A DNA stretch of 64,000 bases. It comes from a virus. Its lineage: Duplodnaviria > Heunggongvirae > Uroviricota > Caudoviricetes. The stretch spans positions 225,291-289,290 of the IMG/VR virus record IMGVR_UViG_3300021431_002946. One strand, 5' to 3'. The position numbers and the translations under genes are program-made. The first letter of the stretch is position 1; every line of letters begins with the position of its first letter. Below, one piece after another: positions 51,674 to 56,322 of the stretch. Under the pieces are notes generated by a model. It saw nothing but the letters and a program-made list of their open reading frames with translations, made no database searches and had not been told where the DNA came from.

Positions 51674-51735
51674 AGTTGCATAAAAACTTCCTTATTACAT
51701 TTATAATATTCATGCAAACGTTAGTTTTCGCAACT
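51674..51735 (+). ncRNA. repeated structured RNA motif M, copy 1 of 5
   Basis: AGUUGC-AUAA-AAACU-UCCUUA...UU-AGUUU-UC-GCAACU. Confidence 0.65.
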
Positions 51736-51772
51736 TAAAATGAAAGGTTATTTATTAATATAAGGTGATAAT

Positions 51773-51925
51773 ATGAAAGCAAAATGGATAGAACATAATG
51801 ATCCGAATAGAATAGATAATAAAGTTTGGTTTGAATGTTCTGATTGTGGATTTATTTCATTAATTAAATCATATGAATGCCCACATTGTAAATATATTAC
51901 ATCTAAAGAAAATAAGAAGCTGTAA
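51773..51925 (+). CDS. small zinc-ribbon protein (50 aa)
   Basis: CSDCG...CPHC; paralog-like to 51358 ORF. Confidence 0.6.
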   Translation: MKAKWIEHNDPNRIDNKVWFECSDCGFISLIKSYECPHCKYITSKENKKL

Positions 51926-52004
51926 ACGAAAGGCTATTTATTAATATAGCTGGAAGGCTATAATAAAAAAACTAATTATACATTATATGAAAGGAGTAAA
52001 AGTC

Positions 52005-52133
52005 ATGTTACAGACATCTAATCTCGGACACTATAACACAACATGGAATACCATGAGTATTGCATGTGAGGTTAAGGGTTTAGGCTTTGCTCCCGAATAT
52101 AAATCAGATAGAAAGTTTAGGACTTTTCTATAG
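52005..52133 (+). CDS. putative leader peptide (42 aa)
   Basis: Strong RBS, short ORF, terminator at 52212-52250. Confidence 0.4.
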   Translation: MLQTSNLGHYNTTWNTMSIACEVKGLGFAPEYKSDRKFRTFL

Positions 52134-52211
52134 ATTGAATTATAATTAGTATAATATAATAAATGAATAAAAAGTAATATAAAATAATATAAAACTATAA
52201 TATAATTTAAA

Positions 52212-52250
52212 CTATAGGAAAGATCTAAAAAAGGTCTTTCCTATTTTTTT
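52212..52250 (+). terminator. intrinsic terminator
   Basis: ATAGGAAAGATC/GGTCTTTCCTAT plus T-tract. Confidence 0.75.
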
Positions 52251-52379
52251 TATATCAAATTTTATAATATAAAAAATTTTTTGACATTTTTTACAAAAAG
52301 CTATTTACTTTTTTTACATTTAATATTATATTTAAACTAATAAAAATAAATGATCTTTTACAATATTAATTAATAACAT

Positions 52380-52440
52380 TCTTCTATAGCTTAATGGAAA
52401 AGCATAAAAGATGTAGGTTCGATTCCTGCTGGAAGATCCA
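52380..52440 (+). ncRNA. tRNA-like RNA lacking the anticodon arm
   Basis: Acceptor UCUUCUA/UGGAAGA plus UCCA, D-arm, 9-nt linker, T-arm. Confidence 0.65.
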
Positions 52441-52628
52441 TGGCAGAAATGCCTTGTAAATCATACTATAATGGTTTACTCCTTAATTAATTTATTGGTG
52501 GTGTGTGAAATTCAAGCTGTCGAAAGATAATCGTTAAAGCCGATTTTAAAAAGTTTTAAAAAGCTGTTTACGAAATAAAAAATTTGAGATATAATACAAA
52601 TATATTATAAGAAAGGAAGAAAAGCAAA

Positions 52629-52730
52629 ATGTTATCAGTAATGTTTAGAAATACAACAGAACCGAAGCTCTATCGCAAAGCGATTTGCGTCGATACCATT
52701 ATGCTTTTTGATTCGTCTGGACCAGGATAA
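52629..52730 (+). CDS. putative leader peptide (33 aa) upstream of tRNA array
   Basis: Promoter, RBS, short ORF, then terminator. Confidence 0.4.
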   Translation: MLSVMFRNTTEPKLYRKAICVDTIMLFDSSGPG

Positions 52731-52757
52731 GTTTAAAATAAAAACTTAATTCTATCC

Positions 52758-52790
52758 AAACGAAGATTCCTCAAAGATCTTCGTTTTTTT
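52758..52790 (+). terminator. intrinsic terminator immediately before the tRNA array
   Basis: AAACGAAGAT/ATCTTCGTTT plus T-tract. Confidence 0.75.
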
Positions 52791-52799
52791 ATTTTAAAT

Positions 52800-52874
52800 T
52801 CCGGTGTAGTTCAACGGCTAGAACGAGTGCCCTGTAAGCATTAGATGTGAGTTCGATTCTCTCCTCCGGATCCA
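52800..52874 (+). tRNA. tRNA-Thr(UGU)-like, C33
   Basis: Cloverleaf, loop CCUGUAA, CCA. Confidence 0.65.
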
Positions 52875-52933
52875 TAAATTCCTCTAATAGAGAGGTCCTG
52901 TAATTCAGAATTGCGCAATATGAATTATGGAAG

Positions 52934-53004
52934 ACTGTATAGTTTAAAATGGTAAAACGTTAGGCCTTTGCCTAAAGTTACAGGTTCGAATCCTGATTAC
53001 AGTA
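52934..53004 (+). pseudogene. degenerate tRNA (4-nt anticodon loop)
   Basis: D and T arms intact; UUAGGC-CUUU-GCCUAA. Confidence 0.5.
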
Positions 53005-53012
53005 ATTATTTT

Positions 53013-53088
53013 GGCTGAATAGCTCAGTTGGAAGAGCAGAGGACTGAAAATCCTTGTGTCACTGGTTCGATTCCAGTTTTAGCCACCA
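53013..53088 (+). tRNA. tRNA-Phe(GAA)
   Basis: Canonical cloverleaf, CCA. Confidence 0.95.
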
Positions 53089-53096
53089 CAATATAT

Positions 53097-53182
53097 GCGT
53101 CGGTATGCAAGTCTGGTCAAAGCAAGCGGTCTGTAAAACCGATCCTTCGGGTTCAGTAGTTCAAATCTACTCCGGCGCACCA
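53097..53182 (+). tRNA. tRNA-Tyr(GUA)
   Basis: Cloverleaf with variable arm, CCA. Confidence 0.92.
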
Positions 53183-53249
53183 AATAAAAAGAAAGGAAAG
53201 AAAAAATATGAAAGAACGATTTACAGAAGGTATATTTCGATATACCATT

Positions 53250-53328
53250 GGCTAGTAAGCTAATCTAGTGATAGCGGTCGCCTGAAGAGCGATGTCTTAG
53301 GTTGGAGCGGAACCAACACTAGCCACCA
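53250..53328 (+). tRNA. atypical tRNA-Phe(GAA) with non-canonical T-loop
   Basis: Loop CUGAAGA; T-loop AGCGGAA; CCA. Confidence 0.55.
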
Positions 53329-53339
53329 AATTTTTTTAT

Positions 53340-53415
53340 GGGTTCGTAGTTCAACGGCTAGACCCCCTGACTCTTAATCAGTGAAATGAGGGTTCGAATC
53401 CCTCCGAGCCCACCA
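53340..53415 (+). tRNA. tRNA-Lys(CUU)
   Basis: Cloverleaf, CCA. Confidence 0.9.
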
Positions 53416-53481
53416 GTACATAATAGCAAGTCAGAAATGATACTACTATTAAAATTGAATCTTGACAACTTAATTATTTAT

Positions 53482-54621: not shown

Positions 54622-54697
54622 GGGTGTGTAACTCAATTGGTAGAGTACCGGTCTCTTAAATCGGGAGTTGCGAGTTCAAGTCTTGTCGCACCCACCA
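54622..54697 (+). tRNA. tRNA-Lys(CUU)
   Basis: Cloverleaf, CCA. Confidence 0.92.
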
Positions 54698-54847
54698 ATA
54701 CGTGTAGATAGTGATTTATTTTGCAAGATAAATCAATATCCAAGACAAATAACATGACTGATCAACATGAAATGCGTTTATGTGGGTTCAAGTCCCAAAG
54801 GGTTAACCATACTCGAAGCCGATGTGAAGGTACACGTATATTTTTAT

Positions 54848-54923
54848 GGGTCTGTAGCTCAACTGGGAGAGCGCCTGCTCTGCAAGCAGGAGGTAGTGAG
54901 TTCAACACTCATCAGATCCACCA
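54848..54923 (+). tRNA. tRNA-Ala(UGC), C33
   Basis: G3.U70, loop UCUGCAA, CCA. Confidence 0.88.
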
Positions 54924-54927
54924 TAAT

Positions 54928-55010
54928 ATTTGCATAAAGACTTCCTTTATTTTCTGGTTCAACTCCAGAAACTTGTTAACAACGAGTTTCGGTATTTAGT
55001 CTTCGCAAAT
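54928..55010 (+). ncRNA. repeated structured RNA motif M, copy 4 (payload contains a T-loop hairpin)
   Basis: AUUUGC-AUAA-AGACU-UCCUUU...UU-AGUCU-UC-GCAAAU. Confidence 0.65.
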
Positions 55011-55015
55011 AATAT

Positions 55016-55092
55016 CTCTGGGTGATGGAATTGGTATACATACTGGACTAAGAATCCAGGTTCTGAGGGTTCGACTCCCTTCTCAGAGACCA
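55016..55092 (+). tRNA. tRNA-Leu(AAG), short variable loop
   Basis: Loop CUAAGAA, CCA. Confidence 0.85.
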
Positions 55093-55200
55093 TGTTGGAC
55101 AAGCAAGTTCAATTCTTGTAGGCTTAACGATAAGGTTCAATTCCTTATATGACTGGAAGTTAGTAAAGCTCTCTTGGTGAGATACATGTCCACACTATAT

Positions 55201-55276
55201 CTATTTGTAGCTCAGGTGGTAGAGTGCCTGGTCAGGGGCCAGGAAGTCGAGGGTTCAAGTCCCTCCAAGTAGACCA
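55201..55276 (+). tRNA. tRNA-Pro(AGG), C33
   Basis: CCUGG-UCAGGGG-CCAGG, CCA. Confidence 0.8.
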
Positions 55277-55342
55277 AAAAATAAATTTTAAGGAGAAAGA
55301 AAAATGATGTTACGAAAATGTTTTACATTACGGATTTAGTAC

Positions 55343-55417
55343 GCGTCTGTAATGTAACGGTCAGCATACCAGACTTTTAATCTGGGCGTAAGAGTTCGAA
55401 TCTCTTCAGGCGTACCA
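55343..55417 (+). tRNA. tRNA-Lys(UUU)
   Basis: Cloverleaf, CCA. Confidence 0.9.
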
Positions 55418-55423
55418 CATTTT

Positions 55424-55500
55424 GCCTGTTTGATGCAATTGGCAGACATGACTGTCTCAAAAACAGTTTCTTATGGGTTCAATTCCCATAGCAGGCACCA
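55424..55500 (+). tRNA. tRNA-Leu(CAA), short variable loop
   Basis: Cloverleaf, CCA. Confidence 0.88.
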
Positions 55501-55504
55501 ATAT

Positions 55505-55580
55505 GCTTCATTAGTCTAACTGGATAAAACTATGGATTTCTACTCCATAGTTACGGGTTCGAGTCCTGTATGAAGTACCA
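55505..55580 (+). tRNA. tRNA-Arg(UCU)
   Basis: Cloverleaf, CCA. Confidence 0.88.
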
Positions 55581-55636
55581 AATATATCAAATAATTGTTT
55601 ACGAATAAACAAATTATATGATATAATATAAAATAT

Positions 55637-55710
55637 TCTCCGGTCATTCAAAGGTAGGATAGGTGACTGTTAATCACTCAATGAAGGTTCGATTCCTTCT
55701 CGGAGAGCCA
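55637..55710 (+). tRNA. tRNA-Asn(GUU)
   Basis: Cloverleaf, CCA. Confidence 0.9.
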
Positions 55711-55832
55711 GTTCAGTGCAGGAGTGAACGAGTTGCAATCGACGGATGGGTGGTATTTAATACCTTAGCTGCACTTTAAATATTAATAATGTTCGCGCTA
55801 TTTTTATAACAACTCATGAAAATAGCATTTAT

Positions 55833-55907
55833 CGCCTCATACGATAACGGTTAGTCGGGTAGATTGTCGATCTACAGGTACGGGTTCGATTCTCGTTGGG
55901 GTGGCCA
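55833..55907 (+). tRNA. tRNA-Asp(GUC)
   Basis: Cloverleaf, GCCA. Confidence 0.88.
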
Positions 55908-55944
55908 ATAAGTTTGATAATTCTTTACAAAAATTATCATTTAT

Positions 55945-56019
55945 GGTGGCATGGTATAATGGTTATTATGGCGGACTGTCGCTCCGTCGATGAGAGTTCA
56001 ATTCCCTCTGTCATCGCCA
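55945..56019 (+). tRNA. tRNA-Asp(GUC)
   Basis: Cloverleaf, GCCA. Confidence 0.88.
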
Positions 56020-56047
56020 ATAAAATACTAATTAGTATTTTTTATAT

Positions 56048-56123
56048 GCCGGTATAGCTCAGTTGGTAGAGCAGTTGATTTGTAATCATCAGGTCTTCGG
56101 TTCAAGTCCGAATATCGGCCCCA
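56048..56123 (+). tRNA. tRNA-Thr(UGU)
   Basis: Canonical cloverleaf, CCA. Confidence 0.95.
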
Positions 56124-56199
56124 GTGCCAGTTGCTAAATGGTTTGGCGTGCAGTCTGCAAAATTGCATTTCATCGGTTCGAATCCGATCTGGCATTCCA
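56124..56199 (+). tRNA. tRNA-Cys(GCA)
   Basis: Cloverleaf, UCCA. Confidence 0.9.
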
Positions 56200-56200
56200 C

Positions 56201-56322
56201 TTCTTGCATAAGAACTTCCTTAGTTTCCAAGCCGTGGGTTGTAGGTTCGAGTCCTACCTTCCTCATTTTGAGGAAGTAGCTCAATGGTAGAGCAACAGTC
56301 TCCCCATTAGTTCCAGCAAGAA
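56201..56322 (+). ncRNA. motif M copy 5 enclosing a circularly permuted tRNA (Gly-like): 3' half 56222-56265, 5' half 56270-56306
   Basis: T-arm plus CUUCCUC-A precede GAGGAAG plus D-arm; flanks pair UUCUUGC/GCAAGAA and GAACU/AGUUC. Confidence 0.75.

Follow-up and report, generated by a model that had tools for sequence, protein, structure and literature searches.

What could be the role of a structured RNA that recurs among the tRNA genes of a large phage, each time holding a different insert? The question arises from a stretch of 64,000 nucleotides (the window; positions 225291-289290 of the virus record IMGVR_UViG_3300021431_002946), whose parent record is a complete 467-kb phage of 27% GC with direct terminal repeats. 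A preliminary description of this DNA reported five copies of an RNA motif clamping variable payloads, and proposed that it was a ribozyme or a protein-binding site serving to excise or circularize them. Here, we call the constant part of the motif the handle and the insert its cargo. Our analysis suggests that the handle is probably a protein-binding site that displays parts of tRNAs, a prediction made from sequence, in a way that resembles the Y RNAs of Ro60 systems without being one of them. Its putative partner is most likely a protein with a helical domain and a TerD fold, with which it would form an undescribed RNA-protein particle.

The five copies are found on the plus strand within 1 nt of the positions first given for them (Table 1), and nothing else in the window matches the 5' consensus exactly. 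Allowing 3 mismatches gives 11 matches in the window against a chance mean of 8.1; since this looser count is at chance level, only exact, paired matches were counted. All five are real, but the genome holds seven: two further copies, at genome positions 314756 and 314831 (~314750-314890), lie past the window end, 33 to 38 kb from the others and directly upstream of the gene for a 622-aa protein. A structural descriptor applied to the 467-kb genome retrieved 6 matches (the five copies and one of the two extras), versus 0 to 1 in each of 20 shuffles. A covariance model scored copies 1 to 4 at 44 to 54 bits, with the next match at 15 bits; copies 1 to 3 belong to its training set, and the insert of copy 5 exceeds the model length. 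A promoter scan revealed no excess over shuffles.

Table 1. Handle RNAs, their annotated cargoes, the tRNA array and the presumed partner gene. Positions are those of the window unless marked as genome.
Feature	Position	Strand	Remarks
Handle RNA copy 1	51673..51736	+	Intergenic between two small open reading frames (ORFs); AU-rich unstructured cargo; 50.8 bits
Handle RNA copy 2	53976..54041	+	Begins 2 nt past the CCA of tRNA-Ala (53895-53973); 53.0 bits
Copy 2 cargo	54004..54020	+	Anticodon stem-loop mimic: 5-bp stem, loop CUGAAAA (Phe GAA)
Handle RNA copy 3	54060..54118	+	Tandem with copy 2; ends 6 nt ahead of tRNA-His; 53.9 bits
Handle RNA copy 4	54927..55011	+	Between tRNA-Ala (3 nt past CCA) and tRNA-Leu; 43.6 bits
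Handle RNA copy 5	56201..56322	+	Begins 1 nt past the CCA of tRNA-Cys
Copy 5 cargo, permuted tRNA body	56231..56299	+	Helix pairing; partial Rfam YrlA match
tRNA array	52800..63800	+	53 tRNAs called by ARAGORN, every one on the + strand
Presumed partner gene (622 aa)	genome 314980-316848 (L002:5980-7848)		Directly after copies 6 and 7, past the window end

The handle consists of two helices with a 3x1 bulge between them and an invariant UUCCU after them. In the consensus of the family, the outer stem ends with a C-G pair, the bulge opposes A-H-A to one C, and an inner helix of 6 bp ends with a U-A pair before the UCCU. The covariation originally noticed in the inner helix (AAACU/AGUUU, GAACU/AGUUC, AGACU/AGUCU) pairs as claimed, the outer stems differ between copies and pair when these are folded or drawn, and copies 6 and 7 provide further covariation within the same genome (GAGCU/AGCUC and ACGCU/AGCGU). 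The loop and junction said to be conserved are fixed as regards the bulge and the UUCCU, but the inner helix of the family has 6 bp and its loop is 3x1. In copies 2, 3, and 5, the sixth inner pair is mismatched, producing a 4x2 loop in place of the family-wide 3x1, and the bulge nucleotide of copy 5 is an A where C is usual.

The same architecture is found across the relatives. When instances are anchored on the conserved letters only, the core positions are paired in 83 to 92% of cases versus 39 to 77% with shuffled partners, minus-strand matches show no excess, and the top ten column pairs by mutual information are, all ten, predicted pairs. An 80-row alignment, with rows pre-selected for pairing, has a covariation score of 0.825, compared with 0.228 when shuffled and at most 0.2 in slid controls. 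G-U pairs are tolerated in the helices, and A-C is rarer. The covariance modeling, covariation analysis, and metagenome search envisaged in the preliminary description thus reveal a real covarying motif, conserved far outside this genome. Fixed identity is limited to the bulge, its flanking pair(s), the U-A pair, and the UUCCU, while the helix interiors vary, a pattern that would be in line, by analogy, with sites of recognition by proteins. At helix position 9, C-G occurs in 28 of the 32 copies beside close homologues of the 622-aa protein, versus 36 of 356 beside distant ones, and all seven copies of our genome carry this minority pair. A handle variant that tracks the protein lineage fits selection by a common partner. 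In at least 36 relatives, the same handle is found inside-out within the anticodon arm of a tRNA-shaped RNA, so that its topology is free. Pairing of the UCCU back into the cargo is possible in copies 6 and 7 and shows no enrichment in the family (56 versus 62). When the copies were searched against Rfam, either at gathering score or with a cut-off of E 10, only tRNAs and a partial YrlA match came up. Hence, the motif matches no known family at gathering score, as first suspected; the handle family is absent from Rfam and has no description in the literature searched, most subscription papers lying outside that search.

The preliminary description contained neither the resemblance to YrlA nor the linked gene. 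The 622-aa protein has a helical domain and a TerD fold, the sole fold recognized in it, which is not a nuclease. Its structure model is confident (pLDDT 88), and the helical part contains invariant basic residues (R200, R256, K258, R278, R279, H285, and R340). Among 160 phage or metagenome loci of the gene, gathered by the protein alone, 147 contain the motif, with 361 matches that are all on the gene strand (0 to 1 in shuffles). Loci from a genome collection, covering many phyla, have it in 59 of 80 cases (96 matches), although some of these contigs of metagenome-assembled genomes may be phage. Every descriptor match (457/457) is on the strand of the gene. The two also tend to be close: 38 of the 45 viral loci with full flanks have a copy within ~1 kb of the gene, and 89 of 121 copies in relatives lie less than 1 kb upstream of it; copies also occur downstream. 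The reverse test started from records gathered by the motif alone. The protein is encoded in 29 of 41 viral records with a paired motif (10 of 11 when near-complete), compared with 0 of 8 records with non-pairing matches. The cyanophages S-CRM01 (g174) and S-CBWM1 (gp22) have the gene, annotated as hypothetical, and adjoining handle copies in which the RNA is unannotated. In the cultured bacterium Marinicella meishanensis (L238:5379-5790), three tandem tRNA-shaped RNAs lie directly upstream of the gene, each with an inside-out handle in the anticodon arm. A sequence search of solved structures with the protein gave no match. Fold searches with the whole model and with the N-terminal domain did not list Ro60, which is no proof that the folds differ; rows of botulinum toxin in a fold search were set aside as low-probability artefacts (TM ≤0.12, rmsd 25 to 34).

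What do the handles carry? Most of the 405 non-redundant cargoes are short (356, or 88%, have at most 65 nt; median 28), and parts of tRNAs are overrepresented. Relative to dinucleotide shuffles, there are 26 anticodon stem-loops of the type CU-NNN-AA with at least 3 pairs, where 3.2 are expected (maximum 7), and 14 T-loop hairpins, where 0.3 are expected; the bare word TTTGGR shows a weak enrichment (22 versus 13). The commonest anticodons are GUU, GCA, and UUU. The cargoes range from an anticodon stem-loop or a T arm to a D plus anticodon arm, a permuted body, or a whole tRNA shape. Among the long ones of relatives are roughly two dozen permuted bodies, of which some retain an intact anticodon hairpin, and roughly eight tRNA shapes whose order is normal and whose anticodon loops are mostly unable to decode (GCAA, 6 nt, or 9 nt).

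Within the window, the range of cargoes originally proposed stands for the AU-rich copy 1 and for copy 4, which has a T-arm hairpin (loop at 54958-54964) followed by a second hairpin, but not for copy 2: this cargo is no filler, and its loop is that of the phage's own tRNA-Phe(GAA) at 53013. The cargo of copy 3 is a weak 4-bp hairpin whose loop contains UUUGGGU (Pro-UGG-like; suggestive only). Copy 5, presented as a whole permuted tRNA, does contain a permuted body, but one that lacks a valid 7-nt anticodon loop and a CCA. The parts follow each other as anticodon-stem 3' strand (56231-35), T arm (56241-57), acceptor stem (56258-64/56270-76), D arm (56279-93), and anticodon-stem 5' strand (56295-99). 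The T, acceptor, and D helices are fully paired, the acceptor stem being a perfect 7 bp closed by a 5-nt loop, and the anticodon stem has 4 of 5 pairs; copies 1 to 4 have no such domain. One Marinicella inside-out RNA has the same acceptor stem, and the inside-out RNAs of loci L309 and L337 are similar to copy 5 throughout the D and T arms. Copy 5 is therefore a circular permutant of the inside-out tRNA class, having its shape but a chain that opens at another point.

These features recall the YrlA Y RNAs and their protein Ro60/Rsr (RF02553; PMC4201824; bioRxiv 10.1101/312249). Both systems have a stem made of the 5' and 3' ends, a permuted tRNA domain, and several RNAs per genome, some with only a T arm or no tRNA part; in both, the gene of a large helical protein lies next to the RNAs on the same strand, and tRNAs are co-located. 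Bacteria with Ro60 have several Y RNAs with a common terminal stem, of which some are reduced to the T arm and some are co-transcribed with tRNAs (PMC4201824). Indeed, the cargo of copy 5 aligns with positions 24-84 of the 114 of RF02553; at 39.6 bits (E 1.3e-7), this match does not reach the gathering score of 69. The matched stretch is the permuted tRNA-like domain, and the unmatched remainder is the Ro60-binding stem. The two systems differ in that stem, where the handle has the A-H-A/C bulge and UUCCU and no GNCGAAN0-1G. None of the seven copies has this Rsr-binding motif, defined for YrlA in PMC4201824, in its 5' strand, and the family consensus differs from it. They also differ in the protein, where TerD takes the place of vWA and TROVE is undetectable, and in the cargo, as handles hold lone anticodon stem-loops and whole tRNA shapes and also occur inside-out in a tRNA. 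No TROVE gene (PF05731) was found in the complete phage genome or in 50 related viral records, with positive controls matching. The 622-aa protein has no match to TROVE profiles of Pfam, PHROG, or NCBIfam, no C-terminal vWA domain was found in it, and hhalign gave 0.2% for its N-terminal alignment against one Ro60 sequence. Together with the partial match, the absence of a TROVE gene and of GNCGAAN0-1G indicates a YrlA-like cargo in copy 5, held by a clamp of another kind. By analogy, the handle system probably works like Ro60/Y RNA, and it is no member of that family by its binding motif, its lack of a TROVE gene, or its lack of vWA.

A separate Ro60-like match is present in 4 of 30 cellular genomes. 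In one locus (Bythopirellula sp., L210:5754-11940), the cassette of handle and TerD gene faces a canonical Ro60 gene (TROVE plus vWA), both systems lying within ~6 kb. On the opposite strand, this Ro60 gene is accompanied by a tRNA cluster and two full-length YrlA-like RNAs, which match RF02553 positions 1-114, also below the cut-off. Likeness extends to the Yrn1 and Yrn2 RNAs of D. radiodurans and to metazoan Y RNAs, which have a bulged terminal helix by a pyrimidine-rich single strand; Yrn2 also comes from a polycistronic precursor with a tRNA. Their conserved sequence and partner protein are different. On the protein side, the Pfam entry PF14447 presumably already describes the layout of helical region plus TerD with a suggested role in RNA, and our finding may be partly anticipated there. 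The proteins combining ROT/TROVE-like, Prok-RING_4, and TerD regions (PF14447; NF041916) share the helical region and the C-terminal TerD with the 622-aa protein. PF14447 itself has no match on the latter, clusters of this type are weak neighbors in the Atlas (0.87 and 0.82), and one homologue has a faint match to NF041916 (E 0.04). In the literature searched, we found no paper reporting a partner RNA for proteins of this type.

Could the handle instead be a processing signal? Cyanidioschyzon merolae and archaea have permuted and intron-containing tRNA genes processed at a bulge-helix-bulge, a structured motif that either lies in the anticodon arm or encloses a permuted tRNA. By a similar logic, the linked protein or a host enzyme would cut at the handle, splicing inside-out tRNAs and circularizing permuted ones into working tRNAs. 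Both expected topologies are observed, copy 5 has its perfect acceptor stem, and RNase P cuts the YrlA of M. smegmatis, which has a 7-bp stem and gains CCA (PMC4201824). RNase P may, by analogy, cut the acceptor stem of copy 5, yet such a cut would fall in the cargo and not in the handle. Moreover, known permuted genes have a fixed register and yield decoding tRNAs, whereas most handle copies have no tRNA body and the register varies. Across 36 inside-out forms, the two junctions (D-arm end to handle and handle to T arm) together span 25 to 45 nt (mostly 33 to 41), and the corresponding sum is 38 in copy 5; a normal tRNA has 27. With such sums, a 7-nt anticodon loop cannot be regained by any fixed cut rule. 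Only 9 of the 36 end in NCCA, the whole-tRNA cargoes mostly have the non-decoding loops mentioned above, and the short loops that dominate the cargoes hold nothing obvious to release. No match to RtcB or PF09414 was found in the phage genome (the search for PF09511 gave none either, with its control likewise silent, and is uninformative), and TerD is not a nuclease. We thus regard this explanation as unlikely, and the excision or circularization of cargoes initially proposed is not borne out. As for the two forms first suggested for such a signal, a protein-binding site is plausible and a ribozyme is not supported. Theta (HDV-like) ribozymes sit at the 3' ends of phage tRNAs, and a self-cleaving RNA trimming tRNA trailers would suit copies 2, 4, and 5, which directly follow a CCA. 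But the handle lacks an HDV-like fold, no ribozyme of Rfam matches up to E 10 (HDV-like/theta, twister, pistol, hatchet, hammerhead, or hairpin), and the top covarying pairs contain no pseudoknot signal. Copies 1, 6, and 7 do not adjoin a tRNA, inside-out versions lie within tRNA bodies, and the strict linkage to a protein gene is unexpected for a self-sufficient ribozyme, making this a very improbable account.

Regulation in cis or by base pairing is slightly less probable than processing. The handle could be an autoregulatory leader, as the frequent position of copies just upstream of the gene would suggest, or its UUCCU could pair with Shine-Dalgarno sequences or mimic an rRNA site. This element is complementary to AGGAG/AGGAA, and the run ACUUCCUUA in the handles of this genome is one base off what we take to be the anti-Shine-Dalgarno end of 16S rRNA. 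The invariant UUCCU of all handles is also the site cut by MazF-mt6 in loop 70 of 23S rRNA (PMC5408214), an identity that is an unexplained coincidence. However, copies are also found downstream of the gene and, here, 33 to 38 kb away among tRNAs. They form tandem series with tRNA-part cargoes and leave just 4 to 5 unpaired bases for pairing. The copy nearest the gene could have autoregulation as a secondary function. Finally, the multiple copies per genome with variable interiors could evoke a repeat acting at the DNA level, such as the end of an element or a recombination site, or mere chance. This is hardly credible when every descriptor match shares the strand of the gene, G-U is accepted and A-C is rarer, and shuffles produce no matches above background.

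A protein-binding handle that displays tRNA parts remains, in our opinion, the best account, and several observations weigh against it. The linkage of handle and gene indicates shared function, not direct contact, and the co-variation of handle and protein lineage can be plain shared ancestry. Around 80% of the cargoes have no tRNA part recognizable by the patterns used. The five copies of the window are distant from the gene, and no third gene consistently accompanies the protein: 93 neighbor ORFs sampled from the genome-collection loci include no recurring family, with RtcB found once.

How might such a particle work? Copies 2 to 5 are embedded in the tRNA array, and copy 1 lies just ahead of it. 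Copies 2 to 5 would be transcribed with the array and probably freed by the processing of its transcript, as the flanking tRNAs mature; we infer this co-processing, with copies 2, 4, and 5 beginning 1 to 3 nt past a CCA. The helical/TerD protein, encoded far away, would then bind each handle in trans. The resulting particle may protect the RNA and present the tRNA part at an approximately constant distance; the loosely kept spacing of the inside-out forms fits a particle in which a defined length separates the tRNA elbow from the bound protein. The tRNA parts could be shown to host factors, although this downstream job is the least certain step. Within the handle model, a role as bait or decoy, aimed at host factors reading or cutting tRNA such as anticodon nucleases, has slightly less than even chances; a tether bringing the protein to an enzyme of RNA decay or repair is a weaker candidate. 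We favor the former because selection has favored lone anticodon loops as cargo, and repair genes are not regularly found next to the gene. More speculatively, and with less than even chances, the phage particle could have an origin independent of Ro60/Y RNA, with one protein and interchangeable baits neutralizing or sensing host defenses that cut tRNAs. The library of baits would comprise Asn, Lys, Cys, Phe, Ser, and Pro anticodon loops as well as tRNA elbows, making it a retargetable counter-defense.

The surroundings of the handles contain other unusual RNAs and genes. In the plus strand of the window, five tRNA-shaped RNAs (56329-56465, 57333-57450, 57875-57997, 59445-59672, and 59835-60022) keep an acceptor stem and T arm around a swollen or multi-hairpin middle and are not called as standard tRNAs. 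Two structured RNAs lie between tRNAs (55090-55195 and 54698-54847), one with two T-loop hairpins and one a long stem with a T-loop-like sequence. A short inverted-repeat spacer recurs between tRNAs (~53639-53677, 55909-55945, 59048-59085, 59270-59305, and 59485-59520); it starts with AGTTTG and holds a TTTTAAAAA-like loop region. A tRNA-Leu(UAA) at ~48629-48924 (plus strand) has its anticodon loop split by a 209-nt intron, according to the intron mode of ARAGORN; the sequence resembles a group I intron and is not among the Rfam matches at gathering score. ORFs resembling HNH or homing endonucleases, by weak PHROG matches, occur in the array (60379-60963) and ahead of it (49733-50974), both on the plus strand. 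Downstream of the partner gene (L002:7948-14513; genome ~317-323.5 kb) are genes for RNase H-like, NUDIX, NADAR, two Band-7/SPFH, gp30.3, and DUF1963 proteins, a set suggestive of functions in RNA or ADP-ribose conflicts.

If the handle and the TerD protein form a particle, large phages and many bacterial phyla would have a second, apparently independent design of the Ro60/Y RNA type. Rfam lacks its RNA, and its protein carries the annotation hypothetical. Its cultured carriers include the two cyanophages and M. meishanensis. A compact protein-binding handle of this kind, which accepts any cargo as well as circular permutation, could also find use as an RNA tag. The YrlA papers leave open what the tRNA-like domain of Y RNAs does, a question that would become directly testable with one constant handle whose cargoes extend from an isolated anticodon loop to a complete tRNA shape.

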